Positions 24,990-51,743 of a DNA stretch of 64,000 nt are shown in pieces (within the stretch, counting starts at the first letter, position 1; the number at the start of each line of letters is the position of its first letter). The DNA comes from Verrucomicrobiales bacterium (GTDB taxonomy: Bacteria > Verrucomicrobiota > Verrucomicrobiia > Methylacidiphilales > JAAUTS01). The notes beneath the pieces were generated by a model. That model was given only the letters and a program-made list of their open reading frames with translations. It ran no database searches and was not told the DNA's origin. Location: NCBI GenBank assembly GCA_031256975.1, contig JAIRPN010000015.1:152648-216647 (forward strand), written 5' to 3'. The translations under genes and the position numbers were made by a program.

Positions 24990-26078
24990 CTACCTGACCT
25001 CCGCAATCAACAACGTCTCGGCCAAAATCGCCCCGTCAATTGGCTTCACAATCTTAAACTTATATCCCAAATTCCAGCTTTCTATCATTGGTTTGATATC
25101 AAAAAAATCACTCCAATTATGATAAATGCTGAGCACCAATACCGGCTTTTGTGTTTTAATTGTGTTGACCGCCCCTTTGAGGAATTCTTGCTCAAATCCT
25201 TCTATGTCAACCTTGATTAATCCAACCTGTATACCATTCTGTACAACATAATTGTCCAGAGTGTCCATATCGACCTTCTCCCTAACCGCCCGAGCAAAAT
25301 TATCCTTGCTAATGCAACTCGATGAGCCGTTAACAACGATTTCGACGCTTTCTTTTCGGGAACCTAAGGCCAACGGCACTATTTTCGCATTTTTGATTTT
25401 GTTTAATTCAAGGGTCTTTTGCATCAACTGCCTTTGTCCTGCAACCGCCTCGAAGGAATATACTGTACGATTCGTGTAGGGGGAAAGCACCAGAACCGAG
25501 TCCCCGATGAATCCGCCAATGTCCAAGATGTCTTTATCCTTTAGTTTTTCCGGGTTTTGTACATGCGCCAATCCATGTTTATAAAAAAAGACACTGGGCT
25601 CAAAGTGTCTGACCGGTAAATAATATTCACCATAACAAAACAATTTTTCTGCTAAATCCACTATGTTTGCATAGAATTCATCGTTCAAATCGGACAATAA
25701 TTTTTGCTCCTGCACCGTATAAACATCTTTTCCCTTTACCGGTAATTCTTGAACTTCCCTTATGCGGTTTATAATGCGACTGACCGTAAACTTGCTCCGG
25801 GTATCAAGCCCTTCGGTCAATAATCGGAATTTTTCCGGAAATTCAGGCGTAGAGAAACCTTGGTAGAATCTCCGCAATCGCGCTTTTTCAAAACCGCCAT
25901 GGTAACAATATTTGTATGTTCGTTTAAATGAATAAGCAATTCTCGCGAAAGATTTCCTGATATAAAATCGATTTGTTGTCTTTTTATAGACAGGCACGCC
26001 CAGTAAATACCCCTTGATTTTATACTCAAGATATTTGTTGTGGTACAGAATAGAAGCGATTTGTCGCAGTATATTCAT
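24990..26078 (-). CDS. FkbM family methyltransferase
   Basis: DIGGFIGDS and LIKVDIEGFE motifs. AT-rich. Confidence 0.7.
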   Translation of the reverse strand: MNILRQIASILYHNKYLEYKIKGYLLGVPVYKKTTNRFYIRKSFARIAYSFKRTYKYCYHGGFEKARLRRFYQGFSTPEFPEKFRLLTEGLDTRSKFTVSRIINRIREVQELPVKGKDVYTVQEQKLLSDLNDEFYANIVDLAEKLFCYGEYYLPVRHFEPSVFFYKHGLAHVQNPEKLKDKDILDIGGFIGDSVLVLSPYTNRTVYSFEAVAGQRQLMQKTLELNKIKNAKIVPLALGSRKESVEIVVNGSSSCISKDNFARAVREKVDMDTLDNYVVQNGIQVGLIKVDIEGFEQEFLKGAVNTIKTQKPVLVLSIYHNWSDFFDIKPMIESWNLGYKFKIVKPIDGAILAETLLIAEVR

Positions 26079-26143
26079 AATCCTATCTACTATTTTTAAT
26101 TATGCAGAAAATATAGTCACATCTATCAAATACAAATCAAATA

Positions 26144-27070
26144 TCATCTATCTGTATCAATTAGTGTAATCCCAAACAGGATTAATCGGTAAATATTTTG
26201 TTTTGGGCAGATCTTAACCCTGAAAAACTGCTGTTTTTTCCGTTTCCTCAATAAAATGCGTTCCACTCGATTTTGCACCACGTCCTCAACATCAATCCCC
26301 CTCCTTATCCCAGCGTCAACCATTGCTACAATGTGCCAATACAAAGCTTTATTGGCATTATCAAATAGCGAAATACCACCTTTATGAATACGATATTTGT
26401 ATAATGGCAGATCAATAAAAACCAGATTCCCCACTTCCTCCATTTTATAGTACAAATCTTGATCCACGGCTCTTTTAAATTTGGCATCAATACCTGAAGT
26501 ACACCGGTATTTGGCCGTCTTGAAAGTGGCAAAATGAGTCACAATCGGCGCACTGTCTCTGAGCATCAAGTAATTTTCATCCGGTTTTAATGCCCGCTGA
26601 TGGGTGGTTTGTTTTTTAATATCAAGCAGTTCATTGCATCTGTAAAAACGGGAAGAGATTAAACTCGCTTCCGGTTGCTGGTAATGGGCTTCCATCATGA
26701 TTTGTAACGCATCCGGGGTCAACGCATCGTCAGGATCCAAAAAGCCACACACCGCTCCTTCAGCCAATTCTGCGCATCTTCGTTTGGTGGCGCCGCAGCC
26801 TTGATTCTTTTCCTGGCGGTATAACCTGATTTTATATCCTTGGCTGATATAACGCTTGATGATCTCCACCGAATCATCGGTGGAGGCATCGTCCACGATC
26901 ACCATTTCCCAATCCTGATAGGTTTGCGCAATCACACTGTCAATTGCTTCGGAAAGGTATCTTCCATTGTTATAGCTAGCCACCAGGACTGAAAACAAAC
27001 CATCTTTCATCTCATCATAATCAATTGGGCATTCCGTCCGCCTACCGGTTACCAAATTTTTTGCTGCCAC
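26144..27070 (-). CDS. glycosyltransferase family 2
   Basis: FSVLVASYNNGRYLSEAIDSVIAQTYQDWEMVIVDDASTDDS (GT-A DxD context). An alternative start at 27010 would remove the overlap with the upstream gene. Confidence 0.85.
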   Translation of the reverse strand: MAAKNLVTGRRTECPIDYDEMKDGLFSVLVASYNNGRYLSEAIDSVIAQTYQDWEMVIVDDASTDDSVEIIKRYISQGYKIRLYRQEKNQGCGATKRRCAELAEGAVCGFLDPDDALTPDALQIMMEAHYQQPEASLISSRFYRCNELLDIKKQTTHQRALKPDENYLMLRDSAPIVTHFATFKTAKYRCTSGIDAKFKRAVDQDLYYKMEEVGNLVFIDLPLYKYRIHKGGISLFDNANKALYWHIVAMVDAGIRRGIDVEDVVQNRVERILLRKRKKQQFFRVKICPKQNIYRLILFGITLIDTDR

Positions 27071-27843
27071 ATCACATTCCCGCTCGCGATCGCCAGTGAT
27101 CGCGAAAACAGCCTAACCATTCTGCGATAAAGATATTGGGGAAGCCCTCTGTGCCAGTAACGGTCACCCAGGCGCTTCAGACGACCCGCAAAACCATTCT
27201 GTTTGTCACCGCGCGTGCCAATGGAGCTGATCTCAGCAGCTTCACGCAAGCCAACACAGTAAGGCACCAGGGCTCTGACAGGCACAATCCTCAATTCCTG
27301 AAACCTCAGCCAATGATCAGCCACAATCCACACGGGGAATAACTTGTCCAACATGTGCCGTGCCGCCTGTCGTGTGATAAAATAGCCGTGTGCGTTCCAG
27401 CATAATCCATAGGTCTCGGCCAATTTCCGATCGCCGGTCAACGAAACCTGCGATCTTTTCAAATACTTCGGCACATGGTTCAACAAAACCACCATTTCCT
27501 GCCCGGCGGGATAACGACTCTCCAGTTGTTCAAGTATCGTGTTCAAATCAGGCGACAACTCCGCGTCATCTTCCAAAATCAACGCATGGGGAATATTTTC
27601 ATCCACCATTTTCCGGTAAATCCCCAAGTGACTCAAGGCGCAGCCAATTTCCGCCCCTGTCATTTTTTCGCGTTCACGAACAGCCTTATCGCCATTATAT
27701 TGCTCCTTGAGTTGAAGCTCGCTCATCTTTCTGCCATCGACCGCCGGAAAAATTTCAAAAGGAATATCCAAAGTACGAAGTTGCTGCGCCATCGCTTCAC
27801 GCCGATCAACGGCTGACTCAAGATTAATTACAAAACAACTCAT
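27049..27843 (-). CDS. glycosyltransferase family 25 (LOS/LPS beta-1,4-galactosyltransferase-like)
   Basis: N-terminus FVINLESAVDRREAMAQQL...FPAVDG is typical of GT25. Confidence 0.85.
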   Translation of the reverse strand: MSCFVINLESAVDRREAMAQQLRTLDIPFEIFPAVDGRKMSELQLKEQYNGDKAVREREKMTGAEIGCALSHLGIYRKMVDENIPHALILEDDAELSPDLNTILEQLESRYPAGQEMVVLLNHVPKYLKRSQVSLTGDRKLAETYGLCWNAHGYFITRQAARHMLDKLFPVWIVADHWLRFQELRIVPVRALVPYCVGLREAAEISSIGTRGDKQNGFAGRLKRLGDRYWHRGLPQYLYRRMVRLFSRSLAIASGNVMWQQKIW

Positions 27844-28044
27844 GGATCCGCCCTCCTATATATAGCTTATCATTGTCACAATTGCCGCAAACACCTTCTG
27901 CTCGCTGGATACAATTTTATTTCCCCTTGCCCCTTGTATTCCATCATATAAGCCTGTCACTAACCTGAATCGCTGGCCTCCCCAGAGGCAACAATAAAGA
28001 GACTTGCTGAATTTAACAAAAGAAAACACAATCATTAACTTCAC

Positions 28045-29886
28045 ATGCTTAACCAGCTTAAGTTTTTGGCCTTAAAAAACCTGTTCGTTAAAAATTACAC
28101 GCGGATGTGGCCGTTTTTTCGCCCATACCGATGGATGGCCCTGTTGGGAGTGGCCCTAACCATGGTCGTTGGGGCATCCGATGGGGCAATGGTCGGGTTT
28201 CTGGGCCTGTTCATCAATAAAATCACCGACAAACCGCTAACGGCAAAACTCGAATTGGTACGGCCCATGATTGACTGGCTCAATTCATTCGACAGCAAGC
28301 AATTCGCCATGGCGATTCCCTACATGATCGTCAGCTTTGTCTTTGTGATCGGCTGCATTACCTATGCCTCAAACTGCATCAATTCCTGGGTCGGTAATCG
28401 CGTAACCATGGACATCAAGAAACGCCTGTATCAAAAACTGCTTTCCATGAACGCGATGTATTTTGATACCAATTCCTCCGGCAATGTCCTGTTTCGCTTC
28501 AATACCGACGCCGAGGCCGCCTCGTCCGGATTGATTGACAACCTGAAAATGTTTCTCACCCGCCTGTCAACTTCACTTGCGTTGATAGCCGCCATGATTG
28601 CCGTGTCGTGGAAACTCTCGTCCATTGCCCTTGTCGTATTGGTTTTTGTATTTCTACCCCTGGGGATCGCGCGCAAACACATGAAACGGATCATGAGTAA
28701 AAGCATTGCTTCCATTACCGGGGTGATCACCGCTTACAATGAAACTTTCGCGGGCAATAAAACCATTGCCGCTTACAACCTGCAGGAGCCCCAGACCCGC
28801 AAATTCAACACCCTGGTCGACGGCGTGTTCAAATTCGCGGTGAAAATGGTGCGCAACACCAACTGGCTTTCGCCCTGCATGCATTTTATCTCCGCAATCG
28901 GCATCGCGCTGGTGGTCGGATTCGGCGGCAACATGATCGTGCATGACGTCATTAGCGTCGGCGCCTTTTTCACTTTTGGCACCGCCATGATCATGCTTTA
29001 CACCCCGCTCAAGGGTATCGGCAATAATTTCGTCTCCCTGCAATATTCCTTCATGGCCATTGAGCGCTTGCACGAGATTCTGGATCTCAAACCGCAGATT
29101 GAGGACGCCAACGACGCCATCAAGTTGCAGGGAGTCCATAATATCATTGAATTCCATGGCGTCTGTTTTGAATACCGTCCCAATGCCCCGATTCTCAAAA
29201 ACATCACCCTTAGCGCCAAAGTCGGCGAAATGGTCGCCTTGGTCGGCAATTCGGGCGGGGGAAAGACTACCGTTGTCAATTTGCTGCCCCGCTTTTACGA
29301 AATCAAATCGGGTTCCATTCGCATTGACGGCACTGACATCCGCAAATTCACCCTGCATTCCCTGCGCCAGCAGATCGGCGTGGTGTTTCAGGATAATTTC
29401 CTATTCAGCGGCACCATTCGCGAGAATGTCATGCTTGGAAATCCCAACGCGGACGAGGAAGCCGTATATCGCGCGTTAAAACACGCCCATCTCTCGGAGT
29501 TCATCGCCAACCTGGAAAAGGGAATCGATACTGAAATCGGTGAACGCGGTATCCTTCTCTCCGGCGGCCAAAAGCAGCGCATCGCCATCGCCCGCGCCTT
29601 TCTCAAGAACGCCCCCATCCTGATTCTCGATGAAGCCACCAGCGCCCTCGACAACAAATCCGAAGCCGTGGTTCAAGCCGCCATCAACGACCTGATGAAA
29701 GGCCGCACCGTCTTCGTCATCGCCCACCGCCTCAGCACCGTCCAAAATGCGGATAAAATCATCGTCCTGAATCAGGGTGAAATCGTTGAAGAGGGTAAAC
29801 ACCAAATCCTCTTGGAAAAGAAAGGTGTTTACGCTTCGCTGCACCAAGCCCAATTCAAAAGTCAAACTACCACACACAATCCATAA
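28045..29886 (+). CDS. ABC transporter permease/ATPase, MsbA-like exporter
   Basis: Six-TM domain plus an NBD with GNSGGGKTT (Walker A), LSGGQKQR signature and ILILDEATSALD (Walker B). Confidence 0.85.
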   Translation: MLNQLKFLALKNLFVKNYTRMWPFFRPYRWMALLGVALTMVVGASDGAMVGFLGLFINKITDKPLTAKLELVRPMIDWLNSFDSKQFAMAIPYMIVSFVFVIGCITYASNCINSWVGNRVTMDIKKRLYQKLLSMNAMYFDTNSSGNVLFRFNTDAEAASSGLIDNLKMFLTRLSTSLALIAAMIAVSWKLSSIALVVLVFVFLPLGIARKHMKRIMSKSIASITGVITAYNETFAGNKTIAAYNLQEPQTRKFNTLVDGVFKFAVKMVRNTNWLSPCMHFISAIGIALVVGFGGNMIVHDVISVGAFFTFGTAMIMLYTPLKGIGNNFVSLQYSFMAIERLHEILDLKPQIEDANDAIKLQGVHNIIEFHGVCFEYRPNAPILKNITLSAKVGEMVALVGNSGGGKTTVVNLLPRFYEIKSGSIRIDGTDIRKFTLHSLRQQIGVVFQDNFLFSGTIRENVMLGNPNADEEAVYRALKHAHLSEFIANLEKGIDTEIGERGILLSGGQKQRIAIARAFLKNAPILILDEATSALDNKSEAVVQAAINDLMKGRTVFVIAHRLSTVQNADKIIVLNQGEIVEEGKHQILLEKKGVYASLHQAQFKSQTTTHNP

Positions 29887-30008
29887 CCACACCTGTTTAT
29901 ACCAATCGCCACATATAGATGCGGCGACGAACCTCAAGACGCGCCGTGTTGATCATGAAACAACCGGGATCAAAGTACAATCAGTCAAATTGTCGGCTTG
30001 CAAGATTC

Positions 30009-30929
30009 TTACCATATTTTCTTGCGAAAAGTCCTCGCCTTTCTTTCCAACTGACGTAAGTGACTTGCCAAATATGCTCTCCAATCTTTATTTTCTGCGC
30101 GCTGATTTAAAAAAGCTTCTATTTGCATATAGCCTGATTCATCCAATTTCCGCCGCGAATCCATTTTAATTTCCCCACAGAATTCTTCCCACTCCCTAGT
30201 CAACCGTTCCTTTGCTACAGCATACAAACTCTGATCCATACGGGCTATTTGTATTAATTCGGATTCCATATCGACCAATTCCTGCCTCCATCCTCCCTTC
30301 GGCCTATTCTGGTTAACTTTATACAGTTGTGGAAAACTAAGCAGCGGGATTTGCAGGCGCCAACTTAACAAGATAAGAGAAATATCCATATGTTCCACCA
30401 GACCCACAAAATCAATCTTCTTCATGTTTGCAAGGGCAATTCTCAGGGTATTCATATTCTCTTTATCCCTGTCAATCCAAGCTTCTCCCTTGCCGGCCAG
30501 CCAACCGGTTTGAAAATTTAATCTTTCCATGATATAATCAGGACGTTTCCCAACCGCTTCTTTAAAATTTATTTGTTCATAAACCCGCATAGGGCGAACA
30601 CACCAGTTTGTACATTTCTTCTCTTGGATTTCCTCTTCGATTTCCTGGCGTTGTGCGGTGACGTAATGATACTCAGACAATGCCCGCTCAACCGGATTTC
30701 TCAAAAATGTAAAAACAAACAATCGGGGTATTTGTCTACAAATGGATAATGGCAAATGCCCCCTGAAGAAATCCCATTGTTTCAATTTGGATATATCATT
30801 TGCCTCAAGCTCCTCTCGGTGGGCATACGGACAAATCCTTTCATGGGGAAATCTCTGCATCATTGCCACTGTCACAGAAGTCCCAGCCGTCTTTGGTATA
30901 TGAAAAAAAAATATCTTTTTGGAAATCAT
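30009..30929 (-). CDS. sulfotransferase family protein (paralog of 851..1777)
   Basis: FFHIPKTAGTS motif. Collinear similarity with the 308-aa ORF, including the C-terminal ...RKKIW. Confidence 0.7.
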   Translation of the reverse strand: MISKKIFFFHIPKTAGTSVTVAMMQRFPHERICPYAHREELEANDISKLKQWDFFRGHLPLSICRQIPRLFVFTFLRNPVERALSEYHYVTAQRQEIEEEIQEKKCTNWCVRPMRVYEQINFKEAVGKRPDYIMERLNFQTGWLAGKGEAWIDRDKENMNTLRIALANMKKIDFVGLVEHMDISLILLSWRLQIPLLSFPQLYKVNQNRPKGGWRQELVDMESELIQIARMDQSLYAVAKERLTREWEEFCGEIKMDSRRKLDESGYMQIEAFLNQRAENKDWRAYLASHLRQLERKARTFRKKIW

Positions 30930-30948
30930 AAGACGTCACACAAATCAA

Positions 30949-31956
30949 TTAATCTCCCGATTTATTCCATATTCTTTTTCGATATCCCCTGATTGCCCGC
31001 TCCAATTTTCTTAGCCCTCCGACTTTCAGCGGCTTGCTCTTCATGTTCACAACCCGACATTTTTCCAATTTGCAACGATTTTCATCCAATGAAAACCACG
31101 CCGAATAACCCCAGGCTCCTTTGAGTTTTTTCTTCTTCACCGGTTCAAGCAAGGTGTCTATTTCTTTCCAATATTCCCGACAATCAGCTGACAATTGTTT
31201 CTCATGTCGACGGTGGCATGCCAGCGCCCCCCTGAAAACCAGTATTTCACTAACCTCGGCAAACCTTCTCCACAAGTCCCAGTCGCCGCATAATTTAAGA
31301 TCCGTCCTAACTCCACCAACTTCATCCCATATTTTTTTGGTCCAAAATGTTCCTTCTTGCATGATAAACGGCATCAGTCGTCCATCATAATATCCTTTGC
31401 GCAAATGTTCACGGGATACGGCGGCAACCGCTTGTGTCATTACATAGGTTCCATCCTCGGCAATGCAACACGGGTAACCAGTCATCACCTCGGCGACCCC
31501 GGTTTCGTAGATCATCCGGAAAGCAGTTTGCACCGAGCCAGGCAGCAACAAGTCATCGGAATTGATCCAGGTCATTAATATTTTCCCCTCATTCCCAGCC
31601 ACTTGTTTCTGCAAATAATTCATCCCTTTCTGAATTGCATCGTACATGGTAACATCTTTTTCTGAGGAAAATGAAAAGTGTACCGGTGCGCAATTTTCAA
31701 ACTTAGCGTCCAGCTCAAACCGCGCCTTCCATTTTTTTAATGCTTCGACAGTGCCATCTTTGGATAAACCGTCCTGGATGTGATAGTAAATTTCAAAATC
31801 TCCCTGTTGAGTGATCACACTTAGGATGGTTTGATCAATGAATTTTATGGAATTTCTGCAGGGTGTAACAATCAGCAATTTATTTTTCATCGGGTTCATT
31901 GCCGGCACAGGCGTGCCAGCATTGGTTTTATCTGTACAACATAAAGAAAAAACCAT
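30949..31956 (-). CDS. glycosyltransferase family 2-like
   Basis: LLIVTPCRNSIKFIDQTILSVITQ GT-A N-terminus and a DD-containing INSDDLL motif. The likely start is the ATG at 31899 (MNPMKNK). Confidence 0.65.
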   Translation of the reverse strand: MVFSLCCTDKTNAGTPVPAMNPMKNKLLIVTPCRNSIKFIDQTILSVITQQGDFEIYYHIQDGLSKDGTVEALKKWKARFELDAKFENCAPVHFSFSSEKDVTMYDAIQKGMNYLQKQVAGNEGKILMTWINSDDLLLPGSVQTAFRMIYETGVAEVMTGYPCCIAEDGTYVMTQAVAAVSREHLRKGYYDGRLMPFIMQEGTFWTKKIWDEVGGVRTDLKLCGDWDLWRRFAEVSEILVFRGALACHRRHEKQLSADCREYWKEIDTLLEPVKKKKLKGAWGYSAWFSLDENRCKLEKCRVVNMKSKPLKVGGLRKLERAIRGYRKRIWNKSGD

Positions 31957-32211
31957 GGAATACCAAACCTATCTTGATAATTACCAACATCCATTCCTGA
32001 TAAAACTGCTCGGGTTTGGTATACATTCATCATTTTCAAAAGCGCTGCCATATCAAGCTGGATGCCGAACAGAAGGACTTTGGAGTATAAATTCCGCAGG
32101 AAAATCCAAGATCAGTTTGCCCGATATTATCGCTTCTTATTCGATATTGATTATTCCCATACTCATGTTTTCTAAGCTTTTCAAGCCAAACACACTGGTC
32201 ATAGTCATAGC

Positions 32212-33318
32212 TTGATGAGTCACGATTCCTCCCTGATCGCGTTGGTGGACTGGAACCGAGGTGGACACAATGAAACAAACTTGCGCGAGCACGCCGCGGC
32301 TTTGGTGTCGCTGGGTTGCCGGGTGGCGGTGTTAAGCCCGTATCCGCTACGATTCGATTCACCATTCATCACCTCCCTCCATTTCGCGCCGCGCATCCGG
32401 TCCGCAGCGCCGGCTTCCTGGAAATTATCCTTGGAATTATGGCGTTTGCAGCGGAAAATACGTCATCTCATCAGGCAGGCGGAACAGCACTTCAATCAAC
32501 CTTGCAAATTGGTGTTCTTCAGTTGTCTGTATGCCTACGAGTCACGGCATATCCATGCCGCTGTCACCGCGTTGTCCCAACCCTGGAGCGGGTTATACCT
32601 GCACGTGACAGGCGATGCGCGACAATACTTCCCGCCCACTTTCAAAACTCTGGCAGCGCTGGATGAACAGGCGGAGGGCTTATTTTTTCCGGACGTCACC
32701 AATGCCGAAACTGCCACAACCTTGCTGGCGCAAAAACTCAGGGACTTCGCCGGAAAGCGTCCCCTGATCTCCCTGACCGGTTATTTACAACCAAGCAAAG
32801 GGATGATGCCATTAATCGACTTGGCGCTTAAGGATGACCTGTCGGACTATGCCTTCGCCTTCGTCGGTGAATTGTGCCGCGCCAATTTTTCTTCTGATCA
32901 ATTGGCAAAAATCACCATTGCGGAAAAACAATCTCCCAATAGCTTTTTTCACTTTCACCGCCTGCCGAATGAAGCCTCTTACAACGCAGTCATCCAAGCC
33001 AGTGATATCCTGTACGCCGCCTATATTGATTTTCCCCATAGCAGCAACACTTTGACAAAAGCCGCAATTTTTGAAAAACCCGTGATTGTCAGCCGGCATC
33101 ATCTGATGGAAAGACGAATCCGGGAGTTCCGGTTGGGTGAAGTAGTAACACAAAATGATACCACCTCAATTGTACAGGCGATTCACCGCATAACCGCAGA
33201 TTATCCACAATGGCTTGTACAACAACAACCGCGTTGGAAAGAATACCGGGAAGCACATTCCCAAACCGCCCTCAGGCAATCATTCCGCCAACTGCTGGAA
33301 ATTTACGATATCCGGTAA
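32212..33318 (+). CDS. hypothetical protein, possible GT-B-fold glycosyltransferase
   Basis: 368-aa ORF. The C-terminal half (FEKPVIVSRHHLMERRIREFRLGEVV) resembles the GT1/GT4 nucleotide-sugar binding region. Weak call. Confidence 0.4.
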   Translation: MMSHDSSLIALVDWNRGGHNETNLREHAAALVSLGCRVAVLSPYPLRFDSPFITSLHFAPRIRSAAPASWKLSLELWRLQRKIRHLIRQAEQHFNQPCKLVFFSCLYAYESRHIHAAVTALSQPWSGLYLHVTGDARQYFPPTFKTLAALDEQAEGLFFPDVTNAETATTLLAQKLRDFAGKRPLISLTGYLQPSKGMMPLIDLALKDDLSDYAFAFVGELCRANFSSDQLAKITIAEKQSPNSFFHFHRLPNEASYNAVIQASDILYAAYIDFPHSSNTLTKAAIFEKPVIVSRHHLMERRIREFRLGEVVTQNDTTSIVQAIHRITADYPQWLVQQQPRWKEYREAHSQTALRQSFRQLLEIYDIR

Positions 33319-33330
33319 AAGAACAGCGAG

Positions 33331-34239
33331 TCACTGCCAGAACAGGCTTTTTCTCAACAAACGGCCATGTTTCCAGATAAATTTCCCGCGCAGTTCGCGG
33401 TAGGATTTAATGTGCTTGGGTAACGGATTCGGGACAGTGGCCAGCTCTTGGTCCAGCATCGCGAAAACTTCGCTACCAATATTTAACCGTTGCTTGTAAA
33501 AATTAAAAGCAATCCAATGCTGAATCTGCTCTTTATACCGCTCGTCAGCCGACCTGTTTTCCGTCAGGCCCCAGTTATTCTTTTCGTGAATGCGGTATTC
33601 AACCAAGTCCCTGGCAAGATAATACTTCCGTCCGCCCAACAATGAACTCCCGAGCAATAACGAATAATCCGCCTGGATCGGGTAATTCCAAGATTCCCCC
33701 AGTTCCTTCAGTTTTAGTAATTTAGCCAGCCTGGTCTTCAGCGAAACACAGGAAGTCACATTGCCAATCCAGCAAGCGGACCGGGCGCGAAAATAAAAAT
33801 AGGTCAGCAATGTGGTATAACCGTAGTCATAATCGCCGGGAGGAGACAACCAAATCGGGTTCTCCGCCTGACCTCCCAACGCTTGGAACCGGCAAAAAAC
33901 CAAATCGACCTTGGGATTGGCCTGATAAACTGCCGCCAAGGATTGCAAATAATCAGGCTTGTAACGATCATCCGCATCGAGCAGGCAAACAACCTCCCCG
34001 TTCGCAGCCTGGATTCCGGCATCAATTGCCAAAAACTGGCCGCCATTCTTCTGGCTGATGATTTTTACCAGCGGGTTGTTCCCATAATTTTGCTGCAGCA
34101 ACCACAAGGAATCATCCGTCGAACCGTCATCCACCACAATAACCTCCGCAGGCGGCAGGGTTTGCCGCAACACGCTGTCGATGCACTCCCGCAAATAGGA
34201 GGCATAGTTGTAGTTGTTAATTAAAACCGAGAACTTCAT
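33331..34239 (-). CDS. glycosyltransferase family 2
   Basis: MKFSVLINNYNYASYLRECIDSVLRQT...VIVVDDGSTDDS. Start placed at the ATG at 34239, which forms an ATGA overlap with the upstream stop. Confidence 0.85.
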   Translation of the reverse strand: MKFSVLINNYNYASYLRECIDSVLRQTLPPAEVIVVDDGSTDDSLWLLQQNYGNNPLVKIISQKNGGQFLAIDAGIQAANGEVVCLLDADDRYKPDYLQSLAAVYQANPKVDLVFCRFQALGGQAENPIWLSPPGDYDYGYTTLLTYFYFRARSACWIGNVTSCVSLKTRLAKLLKLKELGESWNYPIQADYSLLLGSSLLGGRKYYLARDLVEYRIHEKNNWGLTENRSADERYKEQIQHWIAFNFYKQRLNIGSEVFAMLDQELATVPNPLPKHIKSYRELRGKFIWKHGRLLRKSLFWQ

Positions 34240-35258
34240 GGTTGCTGGGGTTTGCGGTCGACAATCAACCGGCCACACAAACTGATCCGGCAGGCACCAC
34301 AGGCGCTATTCTTTCTGTAGGTCAACAACCAGCGTAACAATTTGGTTAACTTTGCCTTCAAGCGGAAACATTTGGCCACGAGCATTTTTTTGCCAAACCC
34401 CCGCATCTCTCTGCCCCATGGGGTTTGCTCCAAAACCTTCCAGTACTCCATCGACCAGTCATGCTTCATGCCCATATTCCAGGGTTTTTTGTGGCTGGTG
34501 AAATGGGCGATCTTGGGTGCCTGCCTGATTTCCCGCCATTGTTGCAGGTCCGGCTGCAGGTCGCCCGATTTAAACAACGGTTTTTGTCCGGTCTGAATAT
34601 TCCAGCGCGGATGCAAGATGTGGACATCCTCACAAAAGACAATGTTCAGAATATCCTGATCGGCAAAACGTTCATGCAATTCCGGCTTCCTCGCCAGACT
34701 GAGACATTGTTTGATATAATTCCGTTCGCGCCAACGGCGCAGGTTCATCATCAAGACCCCGGAATTAAAATAGTGACGGACCTCGTTGTAGCGCTGCAGA
34801 TTTTCCCGGTCGACATAACAATCAACAATGGCGGAAATCCCTGCTTCAGACATCGCCATATCCCACAGCCCGGCAATGTCACCCAAAGCCACCACATCGC
34901 AATCCAAGTACAAGCAGCGTTCCAGTTCCCTGAATACATCCGGAATCAATAAACGGTAATAAGCGGCGGCAGTGATATATTCAGGCCCCAATTCACCGTA
35001 AGCCTGAACCAGGCTGCTGTTCACTATCACGAAGTCACCCTTGGCTCCAAACTGGTTGATAACAAGCATCAGCTTGTCACGAGCACCCTCGGAAAGACTG
35101 TTGATCCCTTGTAGAAAATGGAAATGAAACCGTCCGGGATCAGCAGCATGTTGTAAAATCGACCAGACAGCCACCCCGACAGGGGCAGCGTAGTTTTCGT
35201 CCGGCGAAAAAACAATATGCATCGTCTCTTTCATGTCGCAGTACTTCAATGTCAACAT
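34236..35258 (-). CDS. glycosyltransferase family 8 (RfaI/RfaJ-like LPS glycosyltransferase)
   Basis: YLDCDVVALGD (DxD) and NSGVLMMNLRRWRE motifs. Confidence 0.85.
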   Translation of the reverse strand: MLTLKYCDMKETMHIVFSPDENYAAPVGVAVWSILQHAADPGRFHFHFLQGINSLSEGARDKLMLVINQFGAKGDFVIVNSSLVQAYGELGPEYITAAAYYRLLIPDVFRELERCLYLDCDVVALGDIAGLWDMAMSEAGISAIVDCYVDRENLQRYNEVRHYFNSGVLMMNLRRWRERNYIKQCLSLARKPELHERFADQDILNIVFCEDVHILHPRWNIQTGQKPLFKSGDLQPDLQQWREIRQAPKIAHFTSHKKPWNMGMKHDWSMEYWKVLEQTPWGREMRGFGKKMLVAKCFRLKAKLTKLLRWLLTYRKNSACGACRISLCGRLIVDRKPQQP

Positions 35259-35289
35259 TCATACTCCTGCCCCCCCCAGACATTTTATA

Positions 35290-36315
35290 TTAACGCTTCT
35301 TTTTGCCACTTGGCATAATATTTATGCAAGTTATTCCCAAGAAAACCAATCGATAAATTCCACGTTTGGGGGTTATTTTTATCAATAGCAGATGACGGAT
35401 TACGTCATGCCATCTGGCAATCCGGTTTTTAGCAACGGCCTTCGCCAAGGCTGCCGTGATATTTTCATCCGATCCTCTCCACGGACTGTGACGAAAACTA
35501 TCCCAGTATGCCATCGCCAACCGGTGCTTCATGTCAAACAGCCACGGCTTCCGTTTCCGCCCGCTGTAATGGGCAATCCCCGGCCTCTCTTCGACTTCAC
35601 GCCACTGCGCATTACCGGATTTTATACTGCATAACTTGCATAAAAGTTCTTGCCCGGTCTGGATATTCCAACGCGGATGCAACAGCAATAAATCATTGCT
35701 GAACACCAAATTGAGCACGTCCTGATCGGAATAGCGTTCGGTAAATTTCGGAACCTCCATCAATTTCAGGCACTCTTCCACATAATGACGTTCACGGCAT
35801 TTTCGAAGATTCATGTACAAAACCCCGGAATTAAAGTAATACCGGATCTGTTCATACTTGCCCAGTCCGCGCCCCTCCACATGCCAGTCCCGCACAACAC
35901 CGACCGCCACTTGCGAGATGTCCTCCTGCCAGAGCAAAGCGAGATCATCCAAGGCCACCAAATCACAATCCAGGTAAATGCAACGGTCCAGTTCTGGCAA
36001 TAAGTCCGGGATCAAGATGCGGTAAAACGCATTGGCAGGGAGATAATGCCCGGTTGTCTTTCCCTCCAGAATCGGACGCTCCACCAAAACATCGTCGAGA
36101 CCAGCATTATAGCTGGCGGCAATATCACGGAGTTGCCGTATATTTTCAGTCGAAAGACTCTGCCGGTCACGCAAAAGATAAAAATGAAAGTTCTGGGGCT
36201 GCCCGGATGCACGCAGAATCGATAAAATCGCCACTCCGGCATGTACCGTGTAAGCATCATCTGGCGCCATTACCACGGCTATCTTTCCCGTCACCGGCCG
36301 TTCTGCTGTGTTCAT
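35290..36315 (-). CDS. glycosyltransferase family 8 (tandem paralog)
   Basis: YLDCDLVALDD and NSGVLYMNLRKCRE motifs. Collinear with 34236..35258. Confidence 0.85.
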   Translation of the reverse strand: MNTAERPVTGKIAVVMAPDDAYTVHAGVAILSILRASGQPQNFHFYLLRDRQSLSTENIRQLRDIAASYNAGLDDVLVERPILEGKTTGHYLPANAFYRILIPDLLPELDRCIYLDCDLVALDDLALLWQEDISQVAVGVVRDWHVEGRGLGKYEQIRYYFNSGVLYMNLRKCRERHYVEECLKLMEVPKFTERYSDQDVLNLVFSNDLLLLHPRWNIQTGQELLCKLCSIKSGNAQWREVEERPGIAHYSGRKRKPWLFDMKHRLAMAYWDSFRHSPWRGSDENITAALAKAVAKNRIARWHDVIRHLLLIKITPKRGIYRLVFLGITCINIMPSGKKKR

Positions 36316-37082
36316 TCTTTGGCGGAATTTCTATATTCGTAAAGCTTGGCATATTTTATAAACGTCGAAAACGCGGAAAAATAAGCCAGGTAAAAACCGG
36401 GAAATCCATCTAGGATTCCCAGTCGTAAAAAATACGCCCGGAAAAAACGCCAACAGGCATGCACCACGATTGACAATGCCGAAACTTTTTTGCCGTTTTG
36501 TTTCGCCCGTTGCAAAAAAAAGTCAGTAAAAAAATTGATTTTCCCGACATGACTGGAAATGGATTCGTGCGAATAATGCAGCAGATCGACCGTGAAACGG
36601 ATGGTTTGCCCATCGACCACAAAACAATCATGTTCCTCGGTGCCGCCCAGCCTGCCTTCGCCGTTTCTGAACAAGCGCAAAACCCTGTCCGGGTAATTAT
36701 CCCCATGCCTGATCCATCGCTGCATGAACCACAAACGACGGGAAAACCAAACGCCATTCACATGATCATTGGCATTATCCATGAACCGGAAAATCGCTGT
36801 TTTTAACTCTGGCGACACCACTTCATCGGCATCCAGACTCAATATCCAGGGTTGTGTCGCCTTGCCCAACGCGACACTTTTCTGGTCGCGCAAATTTTGA
36901 AACGGATGCTCGCTGACCACGGCCCCGAAAGATTTCGCCACCATCTCCGTGTCATCGGCACAATCATTGATCACCACCACGATTTCCGCAACCCAGTCCG
37001 CAACGCTGCCCAAAGATTGGGGTAAACGCTTCCCCTCGTTTCTGGCAATCATGACCAGTGAAATCGGCAACCTCTTGCTCAT
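36312..37082 (-). CDS. glycosyltransferase family 2 (WaaE/KdtX-like LPS core GT)
   Basis: ISLVMIARNEGKRLPQSL...LSLDADE pattern. 4-nt overlaps with both neighbours. Confidence 0.8.
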   Translation of the reverse strand: MSKRLPISLVMIARNEGKRLPQSLGSVADWVAEIVVVINDCADDTEMVAKSFGAVVSEHPFQNLRDQKSVALGKATQPWILSLDADEVVSPELKTAIFRFMDNANDHVNGVWFSRRLWFMQRWIRHGDNYPDRVLRLFRNGEGRLGGTEEHDCFVVDGQTIRFTVDLLHYSHESISSHVGKINFFTDFFLQRAKQNGKKVSALSIVVHACWRFFRAYFLRLGILDGFPGFYLAYFSAFSTFIKYAKLYEYRNSAKE

Positions 37083-46152: not shown

Positions 46153-46965
46153 GTGCCTGAATTACCAGAAGTCGAAACCACCCGTCGCGGCATTGAACCG
46201 CACTTGAGCGGGCAGCATATCCTGAGCGTTAGCGTGCGCCAGACGCAATTACGTTGGCCAATTCCGGCCGAAATCATCCGTCTGAAAAACCAGCTGGTCA
46301 TTAGCGTCGGTCGCCGAGCCAAATACCTGCTGGTCGAGCTGCCCAAGGGCTGGATCATCATCCACCTCGGCATGAGCGGCACGATCCGCGTGCTGCCGGA
46401 AAAATTGCCGGCCGGAAAACACGACCACGTCGATCTCCACCTCTCCAGTGGCAAAGTATTGCGCTATACCGACCCGCGCCGCTTCGGTTGTTGGTTGTGG
46501 ACCATCAACGCACCCGCTAACCACAAGCTTCTGGCCAATCTCGGCCCCGAGCCACTAACCACGAACTTTTCCGCAGAATACCTGTTTCGCCAATCACGCG
46601 GCAAAAACACCTTGGTCAAACCTTGGCTGATGGACAACAAAGTCGTGGTCGGCGTCGGCAATATCTACGCCAGCGAATCATTATTCCGCGCAGGCATCTC
46701 GCCCAAGCGTCGCGCCAAGTCGCTAACCCCGGACGAATGCAAAAAAATCGTCATTAGCGTCAAAAAAGTGCTGGAACTGGCGATCAAAAACGGCGGCACC
46801 ACCATCAGTGACTTCCTCAGCGCCGAAGGCAAACCCGGTTATTTCGCCCAAAAACTGAAAGTCTACGACCGCGTCGGAGAGCCCTGTCAAAAATGCGGCA
46901 ACCCGGTTCAAAAACTGACCCAAGCCCAGCGCAGCACCTTTTTCTGCGCCCATTGCCAACGCTAA
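46153..46965 (+). CDS. mutM: formamidopyrimidine-DNA glycosylase
   Basis: N-terminal (M)[13 protein letters not shown]2TH region, C-terminal zinf finger CQKCGNPV...FFCAHCQ. GTG start. Confidence 0.95.
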
Positions 46966-46978
46966 AGGTGTTGTGTTA

Positions 46979-47680
46979 TTAAAACGGGATTTCGTCATCG
47001 GCCGGGTCGTCGCCACCGGCAACCTTTCCCGGAAAGGCATCTTCGGCGCAAACAAAATCCGGATATAGCCAAATATGCGAAAATGCCGCGCCCCAGATTC
47101 TCAGAAATGTCAGGTAAATCTGCCTTGCCCATTTGTCACCTGACTTGCAGGCAAAGATCTTTTCCATGTCAAAAAACTTTTCCCCGTGCAGAATTTCCAA
47201 ATCATAGTCGAGGGAATTTTCCTCGGTATTGACATTCAGCCCGCCTCCCAGCGTGTAAAGTGCAAGTTCAGGATTTCCATGCGGAAATTGCACCTGATAA
47301 AGCACGTCGGAATAATTTTCCTCCGTCAGCAACTTAAGATCAAGCAATTGTAAATTCACCATCAGCGTCCACCAGCGGCGACCATTGATGTCGCGCGGGA
47401 AATCGGCGATAAACATATCAAAATGCCGGTCATAATGAACAAAGGGAATCTGCAACGCGACAACACCTTCTTGCTCACGCACATAAACCGGTCGACAATG
47501 GCCACGAATCATTGCCAATGTCGGAGTTAACGGCAATTCGGCATTCTCAGGCCGAATACACTCAATCTCATACTCAAGCGTCGGCTTTCTTTCCCAAGCC
47601 GCCACGGGCGGAATGGAAATGAATTTCCCGGTGGAGTTCTTTCGCATCTTGCCAATGATGCGGTGAAATTCATTTCTCAT
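46979..47680 (-). CDS. hypothetical protein 'B' (233 aa) ending in an SSB-like acidic tip ...GGDDPADDEIPF
   Basis: Start set at the ATG at 47680, which forms an ATGA overlap with the stop of gene A (ORF track extends to 47785). AT-richer than its flanks. No family recognised. Shares an EG..ALQIP... core with gene A. Confidence 0.65.
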   Translation of the reverse strand: MRNEFHRIIGKMRKNSTGKFISIPPVAAWERKPTLEYEIECIRPENAELPLTPTLAMIRGHCRPVYVREQEGVVALQIPFVHYDRHFDMFIADFPRDINGRRWWTLMVNLQLLDLKLLTEENYSDVLYQVQFPHGNPELALYTLGGGLNVNTEENSLDYDLEILHGEKFFDMEKIFACKSGDKWARQIYLTFLRIWGAAFSHIWLYPDFVCAEDAFPGKVAGGDDPADDEIPF

Positions 47681-48162
47681 GATTGCTCCTCGCCATTGGC
47701 ATCCAAAACGAAAACTATTTCTGCCAATACTTTGAGTACTTCGTTGTAGATGGCAAAAAATATGCAGTCGGGAATCGTCCCGCAATGCATGTGTTCAACA
47801 CGAAAATCCACCGAATTGTTTACTTCATTAGCCTCCAGGTGACCGATCGTAATTGCTCTTTGCAATAGCCTAATCAGGTTCTGGAAAAAATCTCCATCCC
47901 TGCTTTTACCTTGCACTAGTTCGAGACGGTATACCAGCAAGTGTAAATTCCGATGTTTATCATCGTCAAACTCAGCTGCGAGCAGCATATAACCATCCCC
48001 TTTGAAAGTTAACGGAATTTGTAATGCGGGCTTCCCCTCCACGCTAACCACGAACACCTCAATCTGCCGTTTCTCAAACCAATCTCTCGCCTGCCGTACC
48101 CCTGCTGTTAGTGTCACTCCGTTTTTTGTCATGGCGCTAATGATGACAAGCGTGAGGGACAT
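47677..48162 (-). CDS. hypothetical protein 'A' (161 aa), paralogous core with gene B
   Basis: ORF translationally coupled to B. An alternative start is the ATG at 48132. No recognisable family motif. Confidence 0.6.
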   Translation of the reverse strand: MSLTLVIISAMTKNGVTLTAGVRQARDWFEKRQIEVFVVSVEGKPALQIPLTFKGDGYMLLAAEFDDDKHRNLHLLVYRLELVQGKSRDGDFFQNLIRLLQRAITIGHLEANEVNNSVDFRVEHMHCGTIPDCIFFAIYNEVLKVLAEIVFVLDANGEEQS

Positions 48163-48220
48163 TTGCGGGGATTCTGCAAAAGGACTGTATTTGTCCCTAC
48201 TGTCTTGCTACTACTTGAAT

Positions 48221-48880
48221 ATGGACTACAAATTTGAGCCTTGGATTGGCGAAAATTACAAAAACAGCCATCTCCGTACTATGTTCGTTGGCGAATCCCA
48301 TTACGGCGAAGATACCAAGAAATATCGCGAGCGAACCACAAATATTGTCATGCAAGATGTAGTCAAAAACATTCAGGGAAGACACTGGGGAAAGTGCCCT
48401 TTTTTTGGCAACATGTACAAGGCTATGCAAAATGAAAGCGTTCCTCAGTTAAGAACCCGACCGAATTGTAATAAAATTTGGCAAAATTTTTGGTGCGACA
48501 TTATCTTTTGTAATTATCTGCAAACCGAAAGTTTAGGAGGTCCAAGAGGACGTTCAAAACCAGAATCAACTGATTATGAGGGAGCAGCCGAATACTTGTG
48601 GAAGCTTATTGATGACTACAAACCTCGTTTGATTATTTTTTGGAGCAAAGGCAGGATAGCTTGGCATTTTTATAAATGGATAAACGAACAAAAAGCCAGC
48701 AAACTAAAAAATTTTGAGTGGCATCCTGCAGGGGAAGAAGAAAAATGGACGGATTGCCATCACTTCACCAAGCCGTTTCTTTTTTCGATTCTGAAATGCA
48801 ATCACCCTTCGGGAAGAGGCTTCGGCAAACATGAATATGAACGTATTGAAGAATTCAAAAAAACTTTGGCTCGCTGTTAG
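48221..48880 (+). CDS. hypothetical protein 'C' (219 aa), uracil-DNA-glycosylase-superfamily-like motifs
   Basis: Start set at MDYKFEPW, because the upstream part of ORF 48002.. overlaps gene A on the other strand. Four collinear UDG-like motifs: MFVGESHYG (compare GExPG), IIFCNYLQ...PRGRSKP, PRLIIFWSKGRIAW, and CNHPSGRG (compare HPS). Confidence 0.6.
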   Translation: MDYKFEPWIGENYKNSHLRTMFVGESHYGEDTKKYRERTTNIVMQDVVKNIQGRHWGKCPFFGNMYKAMQNESVPQLRTRPNCNKIWQNFWCDIIFCNYLQTESLGGPRGRSKPESTDYEGAAEYLWKLIDDYKPRLIIFWSKGRIAWHFYKWINEQKASKLKNFEWHPAGEEEKWTDCHHFTKPFLFSILKCNHPSGRGFGKHEYERIEEFKKTLARC

Positions 48881-48906
48881 CCCTCTTCAACCTTAGCGTT
48901 AAGGAC

Positions 48907-49920
48907 ATGGCTCGTCCCTCTCCCTTAAAGAGACCTTCACAACAACTCATCACTCGGCCGCCGCTAGACCGGATGCAACGGATTTTTGCGGCACTAAAAG
49001 CGGGCAATGTGTGCGGGCGCTCGTCATTAGCGGCGGAGATCGAGGTAACGGAGAAGACCATTCAACGCGATATTGATTTTATGCGCGAGCGGTTGAATAT
49101 GCCGATTGCTTATAACCGGGCAAAGCAAAGCTACGAGTTTTCCGAGCCGATTGAAAACTTTCCAATGATTGAGTTGAGCGAATCGGAGCTGGTCGCAGTG
49201 TTCGTCGCGCAGAAGGCATTGGCGCAGTATCGTGGAACGCCGTTTGAGCATTCCCTGCGCGCGGCTTTCGAGAAGCTGACCTCCAATTTGCACGGGAAAA
49301 TCTCACTGTCGTGGGATGACTTGGACTCGCGGTTGTCCTTCCGCAATTTCGAGGCTTCGCCGCTGGATTTGAAAACCTTTCAGGCAGTCGGCGCGGCAGT
49401 CAGGAACGGCGTGTTGCTGGAATTTGATTACAAAAAGTCCGAATCGACAACCTATCAGCGCCGGGTCATCGAGCCGTATCACCTCGGCTGCGTGCAAAAC
49501 CGCTGGTATTGTTTCGGCGAGGATACCGCCAAGCGCGGCGAGATTCGCGTGTTCGTGTTGTCGCGCATGAAAAACGCCAGGTCCGGTGACCGCAAATTCA
49601 AGGCGGTACGAAAATTTTCCATCGAAAAGTATCTGCAAAACAGCTTTGGCGTCTTTAGCGGCAAGGAATCGCACAGGGTCTGCCTGTGGTTTGACGCCTT
49701 CGCCGCGCAATATGTCCGCGAACGCGCCTGGCATCCCAGCCAAAAAATCCGGGAACTCGCCAATGGTGAACTGGAATTGAGCCTGCAATTGTCCGACCTC
49801 GCGGAGATCGAGCAATGGATTCTCAGCTGGGGAGCCCACGCCAAGGCCCTGGCTCCCAGGGCGCTAATCACAAGGTTGCGGGAAACCATCCGCAAACAAG
49901 GCAACTATTACGGCTGTTGA
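48907..49920 (+). CDS. HTH-WYL-WCX transcriptional regulator (BrxR/CapW/PafBC-like architecture)
   Basis: N-terminal DeoR/HTH_11-like region (RMQRIFAALKAG...EKTIQRDIDFMRE), central WYL-type domain (RRVIEPYHLGCVQNRWYCFG...IRVFVLSRM) and a C-terminal WCX-like extension. Starts 26 nt after gene C. Confidence 0.85.
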   Translation: MARPSPLKRPSQQLITRPPLDRMQRIFAALKAGNVCGRSSLAAEIEVTEKTIQRDIDFMRERLNMPIAYNRAKQSYEFSEPIENFPMIELSESELVAVFVAQKALAQYRGTPFEHSLRAAFEKLTSNLHGKISLSWDDLDSRLSFRNFEASPLDLKTFQAVGAAVRNGVLLEFDYKKSESTTYQRRVIEPYHLGCVQNRWYCFGEDTAKRGEIRVFVLSRMKNARSGDRKFKAVRKFSIEKYLQNSFGVFSGKESHRVCLWFDAFAAQYVRERAWHPSQKIRELANGELELSLQLSDLAEIEQWILSWGAHAKALAPRALITRLRETIRKQGNYYGC

Positions 49921-49930
49921 CGGTTGAATC

Positions 49931-50143
49931 GGTTGCAAAACGCCCTGTTCCCCCTTCGGTTAAGGGTTGCAACCTGTTTGATAAAGGCTTTGTCAGGCTT
50001 GGTTATGAGCTGGTTCAGGCTTGATAAGCCTTTTATCAAGTCCGTTAAGCCTTGGTTCAATCCCAACAAGATCTTTGTCCAAGTCGGACAAAGCTTACTT
50101 CAAACTCGCCAAGGCCTTGTTCAAGCTTGAACCAAGGCTTAAC
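49931..50143. other. 213-nt element of three consecutive hairpin domains (candidate structured ncRNA or protein-binding array)
   Basis: SL1 pairs GGTTGCAA (49931-38) with TTGCAACC (49967-74) and encloses CCCTTcggttAAGGG. SL2 pairs TTGATAAAGGCTT (49978-90) with AAGCCTTTTATCAA (50026-39). SL3 is a perfect 17-bp IR, GTTAAGCCTTGGTTCAA (50044-60) with TTGAACCAAGGCTTAAC (50127-43), enclosing CTTTGTCCaagtcGGACAAAG and the palindrome GTTCAAGCTTGAAC. Confidence 0.55.
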
Positions 50144-50268
50144 CAGGCAGGAAAACCGGAAAAACCCTCCATCTTCCCCTTTGTCACGGTCAAAAAACGT
50201 TAAATTACCGTGAAATATTTTGTTTTCTTTCCACCTCGAACCCCTAATCTTTTCGCATTCACAAGCAC

Positions 50269-51303: not shown

Positions 51304-51743
51304 TTCACCGCAGAGGCGCGGAGACGCGGAGTTTTATTGGATGGAGCAACTGACAGGACAGATTATTGCTTCGGCGATTGAAGTTCATCGTCATTTAGGA
51401 CCTGGGCTTCTGGAATCGACTTACGAAGAATGTTTGGCCCGAGAATTTGAACTGAAAGAGCTTCCGTTCAACCGCCAAGTGACCTTGCCAGTTACATACA
51501 AAGGACAATCTCTCGATTGTGGTTACCGCATGGATTTTGTGGTAAATGATAAGATTATCCTCGAACTAAAGGCTGTCGAAAAATTTGAACCCATTCATCA
51601 AGCCCAGTTGCTTACTTACTTGAAATTATCAAACAGACAACTCGGGTTGCTCATTAATTTTAACGTCCCCTTGTTAAAACAAGGCATCAAACGAATAGCC
51701 AACAACTATCAAACCTCTGCGTCCTCCGCGCCTCTGCGGTGAA
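51304..51743 (+). mobile_element. inverted-repeat-bounded single-gene cassette (GxxExxY passenger) inserted between purM and purH
   Basis: Arms are TTCACCGCAGAGGCGCGGAGACGCGGAGTTTTA (51304-36) and AAACCTCTGCGTCCTCCGCGCCTCTGCGGTGAA (51711-43). The cassette begins 1 nt after the purM stop and ends 10 nt before the purH ATG. Confidence 0.65.
51341..51742 (+). CDS. GxxExxY protein (PD-(D/E)XK-like small protein family)
   Basis: GPGLLESTYEECL (G-x-x-E-x-x-Y) and DFVVNDKIILELKAV, typical of the family. The last 10 codons (...TSASSAPLR) are encoded by the repeat arm. Confidence 0.85.
   Translation: MEQLTGQIIASAIEVHRHLGPGLLESTYEECLAREFELKELPFNRQVTLPVTYKGQSLDCGYRMDFVVNDKIILELKAVEKFEPIHQAQLLTYLKLSNRQLGLLINFNVPLLKQGIKRIANNYQTSASSAPLR

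Follow-up and report, generated by a model that had tools for sequence, protein, structure and literature searches.

Four genes that lie between mutM and purM in a Verrucomicrobiales metagenome-assembled genome raise the question whether they work together as an undescribed DNA-damage-response or anti-phage system, as an original prediction made from the letters of the DNA had proposed. The stretch analysed, 64,000 nucleotides of the 323-kb contig JAIRPN010000015.1, is referred to here as the window. Two of the genes, A and B, are read from one strand; across a short spacer the other strand carries C, encoding a protein with motifs like those of uracil-DNA glycosylases (UDG), followed by D, encoding a regulator. 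A, B, C and D are not a fixed four-gene set. The loci of its relatives suggest that D is native to the genome and regulates a slot in which the cargo varies and is mostly of an accessory or conflict type. New here are a WYL-regulated cargo variant, one UDG-like family and one very rare family with a tail like that of SSB, the protein that binds single-stranded DNA.

The regulator D and its operator

Both the WYL domain of D (Pfam PF13280, E 8.4e-14, 51.8 bits against a cut-off of 21.8) and WCX, its C-terminal dimerisation domain (PF25583, E 1.4e-17, 64.2 bits against 23.9), passed the Pfam cut-offs, in agreement with the WYL regulator that had been predicted, and the generic WYL models of PADLOC matched the protein with E 4e-36. 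[quoted passage not shown] Judged by these domains, D is a WYL-WCX transcription factor with a putative N-terminal HTH. If the HTH is counted in, it shares its domain order with DriD of Caulobacter, PafBC, SiwR of mycobacteria, CapW and BrxR and, like them, has a palindromic operator (a predicted one in the case of D) and adjoins, or is co-transcribed with, the genes that it would control.

WYL regulators that sense single-stranded DNA (ssDNA) have been documented both in the damage response (DriD, PafBC, SiwR) and in defence (CapW, BrxR) (PMC9186387, PMC11804915, PMC10693628, PMC11662680). The nearest solved relatives of D are DriD and PafBC, although the similarity to them is only at E ~1e-8, and neither BrxR nor CapW scored at E 0.01 or better against D. 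When D was aligned with DriD by HMMER, R214 of D fell on the ssDNA contact R204 and F216 on W206 (contact residues as named in PMC9186387), and the tyrosine of the WYL motif, Y201, met DriD Y192 only after a one-residue shift of the alignment. By analogy with these regulators, D would sense ssDNA and would activate rather than repress its targets. At least 329 relatives of D were found in metagenomes, and 80 loci, at 45-61 % identity, were fetched. Regulators of the D family are common in Verrucomicrobiota.

In 74 loci, the 250 nt upstream of the D homologue were scanned, with at most one arm mismatch allowed. A 15-bp palindrome, GGACA-N5-TGTCC (the D-box), was present upstream of D in 50 of the 74, with perfect arms in 37; relative to the start of D its median position was -85. 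The control, 247 kb making up the rest of these loci, held 30 matches, giving a ~24-fold enrichment upstream of D. We predict that GGACA-N5-TGTCC is the operator of the D family; it differs from the DriD site ATACGTCCGTTTCTGGCGCA (PMC9186387). The spacer between A and C carries a box of this kind, i.e. the conserved, predicted operator of D's own family, and the shared control region that had been proposed for the two sides is therefore real. Although the flanking genes are only ~30 % identical or unrelated, the 58-nt spacer can be aligned with its counterpart in L003, and an exact 14-mer, GACAAATACAGTCC, is common to both spacers, occurring once in each sequence and in the same relative place. 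A scan of the whole window gave no D-boxes beyond the two at this locus, and none before rmuC or mutM.

Perfect boxes elsewhere in the D-homologue loci immediately precede cargo genes. The elements follow in a fixed order, box, 9 nt, TGn, TAnnnT, 6-7 nt, ATG, which was found at L027, L039, L060 and L051 and before gene X of L003. C conforms to this order exactly, with the box at 48182-48196, ctactgtct, TGc, TACTAC at 48209-48214, ttgaat and the ATG at 48221, and X does so too, its box being followed by cttaaaatt, TGa, TAGATT, tttctt and ATG. An extended -10 without a -35 implies a leaderless mRNA, so that leaderless transcripts are predicted here, and the D-box lies at about -39 to -25 of these apparently leaderless genes. 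In having promoters without a -35 the D-box genes resemble the targets of PafBC and SiwR. On the other side of the spacer, the predicted -10 of A-B, CAGAAT, aligns with TACAAT of L003, and both are then followed by CCCCRCAR and ATG. The proposed promoter elements were derived by comparison between loci; a simple sigma-70 promoter scan of the spacer found nothing. The D family's own promoter, as seen in the metagenomic loci L006-L085, has a box ~20 nt upstream of a TTGCAA-like -35.

A second box-like palindrome spans the start codon of D; L003 shows the same arrangement, as do 11 of the 15 nearest homologues of D. The palindrome may serve autoregulation, which would recall driD, but it could equally be a mere product of the ribosome-binding site and the conserved MxRP codons. 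The sequence right before the D start codon, TTAGCGTTAAGGAC, is identical between the window (48885-48906) and L003 (554-585). It holds the genome's abundant TTAGCG motif, and some TTAGCG copies may sit in translation-initiation regions.

Cargo beside relatives of D

The place between the box and D, which C occupies in the window, is taken by a vWA protein in L006 and by ARPP-1 together with a 108-aa protein in L011. Other boxes lie downstream of D and precede cargo there: vWA and then DUF2130, ARPP-1 and then DUF932, the N-terminus of an SF2 helicase, and an M28 peptidase. No box was demonstrated for the type I methyltransferase that comes straight after D in L010, for Cas7g in the vicinity of D in L034, or for the RES-Xre pair at a short distance from D in L060. 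Variable accessory or defence-type genes lie beside members of the D family, as they do beside BrxR and CapW. The proposal of a defence or damage function draws support from the accessory or conflict-type cargo behind D-boxes elsewhere. The idea of one conserved four-gene system is not supported. The D-box and the promoter layout in L006-L085 also define a candidate regulon of variable cargo.

Foreign composition and allele swapping

The composition of A, B and C is foreign, that of D native. The GC content at third codon positions (GC3) was 0.49 in A, 0.53 in B and 0.40 in C, against 0.69-0.77 in rmuC, mutM, purM and purH, which bears out the earlier remark that the three genes are AT-richer than their flanks; the GC3 of D was 0.675. 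Locus L001 contains the 3' end of an A homologue (61 % identity), a B homologue (66 %) and a convergent mutM that is 97 % identical. The stop codon of mutM marks exactly the point at which nucleotide identity between the window and L001 drops from 97-100 % to ~65 %. For B and its L001 allele the nonsynonymous divergence (dN) was 0.23 and the synonymous divergence (dS) 2.5, whereas the dS of mutM was 0.12. The low dN/dS of B (~0.09) indicates that it is under purifying selection. These sequence comparisons indicate that A/B differ from L001 because recombination has brought in an allele that is old, and not because the genes have changed rapidly where they stand. The contrast in GC3 with the flanking genes, the drop in identity at the mutM stop and the contrast in dS against L001 together argue for a foreign origin of A, B and C.

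The 1.9-kb insert in the window is bordered neither by an integrase or relaxase gene nor by repeats or a tRNA. A scarcity of TTAGCG had also been taken as a sign of acquisition, and this argument was dropped: the A-C stretch has 2 copies where ~4 are expected, which is not significant, and other 2-kb bins of the window hold none.

The UDG-like protein C

C carries the motifs GESHYG, CNY and HPSG, has an isoelectric point (pI) of 9.05 and is named a uracil-DNA glycosylase family protein by NCBI, although its match to the Pfam UDG model PF03167 (E 3.4e-4, 21.1 bits) is below the cut-off of 24.3. When a C-family profile was compared with an alignment of family 4 UDG and UdgX by hhalign (E 8.2e-5, probability 61 %), GESHYG fell on GE(G/A)PG, the Asn of CNY (N98) on the beta-2 Asn (ITN), and HPS (H195) on the HPA of motif B. 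C is thus like family 4 UDG and UdgX (PDB 1ui0, 1l9g, 4zbx, 8iir) in having motif A (GESHYG against GE.PG), the beta-2 Asn and the His of motif B in register. It differs from family 4 UDG in being without the N-terminal CxxC and the other Fe-S cysteines, of which no equivalents are conserved in the C family; the alignment begins after the N-terminal CxxC segment. The UDG-superfamily-like motifs that had been noticed in C are accordingly in register by profile alignment, whereas the Pfam model stays below its cut-off, and C is best called, on sequence grounds, a distinct, divergent family within the UDG superfamily. By analogy, C would be a glycosylase.

Distant homologues of C were found by tblastn in 86 plasmid records, 66 of them from Escherichia, and most of these plasmids are conjugative or mobilisable. 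Two plasmid homologues that were examined gave weak UDG matches (PF03167, 16.6 and 17.2 bits) and share with C the motifs KFEPWIG...GESHYGE, (F/Y)xNY and HP(S/C)G. Neither viral contigs nor phage genomes contained relatives of C, and a word-indexed homologue search with C returned only the protein itself. One plasmid homologue (L086, 5974-6516) is on the E. coli IncN conjugative plasmid CP057089.1, where it and small hypothetical genes form a block upstream of genes for a DNA methyltransferase and a DEAD-box helicase. Another (L087, 4965-5642), on Aureimonas pAU20e, adjoins an SOS-response-associated peptidase and an HTH regulator.

UDG-like enzymes that are AT-rich and linked to mobile elements have been described as single-gene phage defences, namely Brig1 (PMC11078745) and Brig2 (bioRxiv 10.1101/2025.10.29.685425), so that a glycosylase fold in defence is not the novelty it had been thought to be. 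By description C is similar to both in being divergent and UDG-like, AT-rich compared with its host, horizontally mobile and overlooked by sequence-based defence annotation. It differs in its own motif A, GESHYG, and in standing under a WYL regulator and being paired with A/B, whereas the Brigs act as single genes.

A and B, a family with an SSB-like tail

B starts with the conserved motif M(R/K)xEFHxIIxKM, continues with a beta-rich core and a variable linker, and ends in an acidic tip. Its homologues are P0003 (66 % identity), P0004 (58 %) and P0006 (~30 %, E 6e-19). B was called as 233 aa by JGI and as 208 aa, from an internal GTG, by NCBI; the long form is backed by the 229-aa P0003, which aligns from residue 1. 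The SSB tail that had been proposed for B stood up to comparison: the protein ends in DDPADDEIPF, and the tip is kept in four family members as DEIPF, DEIPF, DEIPL and DDEIPF, while the preceding linker varies in sequence and length. E. coli SSB ends similarly (...DFDDDIPF), the ending of the B family being D-(D/G/S)-D-E-I-P-F/L behind a variable, probably disordered linker, and a tail behind a linker is the layout that SSB uses to recruit partner proteins. B differs from SSB in having no detectable oligonucleotide/oligosaccharide-binding (OB) fold, and A has no tail at all. Kinship of A/B with the OB fold of SSB was considered and rejected, as no Pfam SSB match was obtained at E up to 1 and only the six tail residues (DDDIPF in E. 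coli) were aligned when the family profile was compared with E. coli SSB by hhalign.

A is a paralogue of the B core without the N-terminal extension and the tail. Compared directly, A and B match with E 0.007 via a shared ALQIP motif; their paralogy is established by P0006, which matches both A (E 3e-16) and B (E 6e-19). A and B have pI values of 5.1-5.3, i.e. they are only mildly acidic, and a role as DNA mimics is neither supported nor excluded.

The family is exceedingly small, with four loci among ~15 billion proteins. Word-indexed searches of 5.8 billion clusters returned only the protein itself for A and two relatives for B, and one further relative, P0006, came from running a B profile with HMMER over the full set of 1.84 billion cluster representatives. 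A metagenome scan by alignment with A as the first sequence gave no relatives, viral contigs and phage genomes contained none of B or P0006, and plasmids none of P0006. Neither A nor B matched Pfam, NCBIfam, PADLOC or PHROGs above threshold. A search of the PDB with the A/B profile gave nothing meaningful; the matches there, as in the searches with C, the C family and X, were at chance level (GDP-mannose dehydratase, dynactin).

With regard to named systems, the claim that A, B and C lie outside them was upheld by PADLOC-DB 2.0.0 at E up to 1, a release that predates Brig1 and Brig2, and by NCBIfam and Pfam, where nothing matched above threshold. In the same PADLOC search there was no match for X or for the C homologue of locus L002, and P0006 had only a chance-level match to JetB (E 0.033).

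Related loci

In L003 the D homologue is 72 % identical and the position of C is taken by X, an unrelated 310-aa protein with no match in Pfam, PADLOC, NCBIfam or the PDB and one match to a PHROG of unknown function. Across the spacer from X lies P0006, and then a fumarase gene. A is reduced there to a 14-codon open reading frame (ORF), MSPCPGIISGMEVL, at 1595-1639, with the start context of A and the ATGA overlap with P0006 kept. A in the window begins MSLTLVIISAM, and the 14-codon ORF starts at the corresponding place; judged from these sequences, it is apparently what remains of A, with translational coupling preserved. L002 carries homologues of B (56 %) and C (30 %) that meet head to head at 430-460, with a dus gene following; the two have lost their N-termini, and neither gene A nor any of the control region is left. 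L002 is either a copy decayed by deletion or a chimeric Logan contig.

All three loci that cover that side have a B-type gene beside the gene in the C or X position; L001 is too short. The expectation that A, B, C and D co-occur was borne out in part, as A/B-type genes recur beside a 72 %-identical D in L003, although C is swapped and A a remnant there. As a conserved four-gene system, however, the locus did not hold up: A/B, C or a tail-bearing protein were absent from all 80 fetched metagenomic loci, and the two D loci of the genome collection, L004 (49 %) and L005 (72 %, cut off upstream of D), likewise had no A, B or C. The module lies beside mutM, fumarase or dus, i.e. in three genomic contexts, so that the mutM/rmuC neighbourhood, to which significance had been attached, has no special meaning.

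Interpretation of the module

The explanation that we favour, tentatively and just short of calling it probable, is a stress- or phage-induced accessory module, in which an ssDNA-induced slot under a WYL regulator holds a Brig-like glycosylase effector and an SSB-tail adaptor pair. The regulatory link in this explanation is well supported, and the function would be as follows. The D-box would replace the -35 at target promoters, upstream of an extended -10, and the mRNAs would be leaderless. The acquired UDG-superfamily gene C would have settled between the D-box promoter and D, with the A-B operon diverging from the same box; given this position, C and D are probably co-transcribed. ssDNA arising from DNA damage, or from phage or plasmid replication, would bind the WYL domain of D, and D would then switch on C-D and alter the expression of A-B. 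C would excise a base, most likely a non-canonical or modified one, as with Brig1 and Brig2, and the abasic sites left behind would block replication of the targeted DNA. A and B would form a complex, the tip of B docking at ssDNA on proteins that bind the SSB tail, or competing there with SSB.

Several observations weigh against this explanation. The plasmid homologues of C have no A/B alongside and A/B have another partner in L003, so that C and A/B may not work together, and the A/B copy in L002 looks decayed. The great rarity of the A/B family makes it uncertain whether it has been selected for a general function. Housekeeping genes surround most D homologues, e.g. in L004, and D could be a global damage regulator, the cargo of the window being just one target among many. 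The distance between box and -10 on the A side is 9 nt shorter in the window than in L003, and A-B may therefore be regulated differently, e.g. by repression. A single-sequence AlphaFold2 model of C (predicted local distance difference test, pLDDT, 38) was unusable, which leaves the UDG fold on weak sequence evidence, i.e. the sub-threshold Pfam match and the hhalign probability of 61 %, and searches of the PDB by sequence with C alone and with the C-family profile gave no meaningful match. The AlphaFold2 model of B, from a three-sequence alignment, was equally unusable (pLDDT 38).

The strongest rival, unlikely but deserving serious weight, is that the locus belongs to an accessory regulon for the repair of DNA damage rather than to immunity. 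D would be the verrucomicrobial counterpart of DriD or PafBC, the damage-response activators that are its closest solved relatives, C a glycosylase of base excision repair acting on a damage product, and A/B adaptors that bring SSB-interacting enzymes to ssDNA gaps. E. coli Ung is a documented partner of the SSB tail, the neighbours mutM and rmuC are repair genes, and the Aureimonas homologue of C is beside an SOS-response-associated peptidase, which acts on abasic sites. The D-box promoters, being without a -35, are also like those of PafBC (PMC9186387). However, A, B and C are foreign and have been swapped between near-identical strains, which is unusual for core repair genes. With three genomic contexts the proximity of mutM is incidental, neither rmuC nor mutM in the window is preceded by a box, and other D-box cargo (vWA, ARPP-1, helicase) is not repair-like.

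A bolder version of the accessory-module reading, which we consider improbable, would make A/B, as a pair without an OB fold that an ssDNA-sensing WYL regulator turns on, a new class of SSB-tail mimics that capture or block the SSB interactome (RecQ, ExoI, PriA, Ung and the like) on replicating foreign DNA, with C or X in the neighbouring slot as a swappable effector that modifies DNA. In the literature searched, no immune or abortive strategy built on SSB-tail mimicry was found described.

It is also possible, though we think it quite improbable, that the genes are remnants of a mobile element, captured beside D, that served the establishment or anti-defence of incoming ssDNA elements in the manner of the ssb and anti-restriction genes in the leading regions of plasmids. 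Besides L002, relatives of C were found only on plasmids (86 records), the tail of B recalls plasmid and phage SSBs, and the composition is foreign. Yet the insert is not surrounded by integrase, relaxase, repeats or tRNA, relatives are missing from the phage and viral collections, B is under purifying selection, and the genes sit precisely on the operator of a host regulator with promoter spacing of the host type.

That there is no system at all, A-B and C being unrelated accessory genes in a recombination hotspot by D which share intergenic space only, would agree with the rarity of the family, with the truncated head-to-head copy of L002 and with the fact that neither C nor A is a constant partner of B. 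We regard this as very doubtful, since the window and L003 have both retained the box and the two -10 elements despite coding divergence beyond nucleotide alignment, and since a B-type gene stands beside the gene in the C or X position in all three loci showing that side. Least probable of all is a toxin-immunity pair in which C (or X of L003) would be an enzyme that is toxic by damaging DNA, and A/B would counteract the enzyme or its effects: the enzyme is indeed variable, while the A/B-type gene facing it over the common promoter region is constant, and acidic A and B face a basic C, but plasmid homologues of C do without an A/B partner, A/B stay homologous while the fold of the partner changes completely, the divergent non-operonic layout is atypical for toxin-antitoxin pairs, and the SSB tail has no obvious role.

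If the accessory-module explanation is true, it provides a testable regulon for a WYL family widespread in Verrucomicrobiota, with a 15-bp operator, promoters without a -35 and apparently leaderless targets. The variable slot between promoter and D could be mined for stress and defence genes, as the neighbourhoods of BrxR were. The distinct UDG-like family with the GESHYG motif, shared with IncN and other plasmids, would join the mobile glycosylases that may attack modified DNA. In A/B, an SSB docking tip seems to have been graftable onto an unrelated fold, which, if functional, would be a new way to tap or jam the SSB interactome; with only four loci, the general importance of A/B is limited.

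Layout and other features of the locus

The coordinates are collected in Table 1. The gene layout, the 58-nt spacer, the ATGA overlap (the TGA stop of A with the ATG of B) and the 26-nt gap between C and D that had been described all agree with the ORF map. The flanking genes were identified by inspection of their translations alone, as mutM (46153-46965, N-terminus PELPEVE) and purM.

Table 1 Features of the A-B-C-D locus (positions in the window)
Feature	Position	Strand	Description
Gene B	46979..47680	-	233 aa from ATG, ORF
SSB-like tip DDEIPF	46982..46999	-	last six codons of B
Gene A	47677..48162	-	161 aa, ORF
Divergent control region	48163..48220		58 nt, read from the sequence
Predicted -10 of the A-B promoter	48171..48176	-	CAGAAT (minus strand); lies 8 nt ahead of the start codon of A
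D-box (predicted operator)	48182..48196		GGACTGTATTTGTCC, D-family consensus GGACA-N5-TGTCC, one arm mismatch
Predicted extended -10 of the C-D promoter	48206..48214	+	TGcTACTAC, from the cross-locus layout; ends 6 nt before the C start
Gene C	48221..48880	+	219 aa, ORF
Second box-like palindrome	48903..48917		GGACATGGCTCGTCC, spans the D start codon
Gene D	48907..49920	+	337 aa, starts after the 26-nt gap from C

The intergenic region between D and purM contains a strongly structured element of ~190 nt (49970-50160), in which 17-nt perfectly complementary arms (50044-50060 and 50127-50143) enclose an inner hairpin. Its minimum free energy is -74.8 kcal/mol (z-score -6.15), and the window holds no second copy. 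It could be a terminator, a small RNA or an insertion resembling a miniature inverted-repeat transposable element. An Rfam scan of 44-53 kb gave no credible RNA family, only two sub-threshold matches of miRNA models on the hairpin.

Between purM and purH lies an AT-rich ORF of 133 aa (51341-51742, GC3 0.44), the stop of which overlaps the start of purH, and which we take to resemble the GxxExxY, PD-(D/E)XK-like, family. The largest AT-rich stretch of the window, at ~25000-37000 (GC 0.41-0.50 against 0.53 overall), has few copies of TTAGCG/CGCTAA and is probably another acquired gene cluster.

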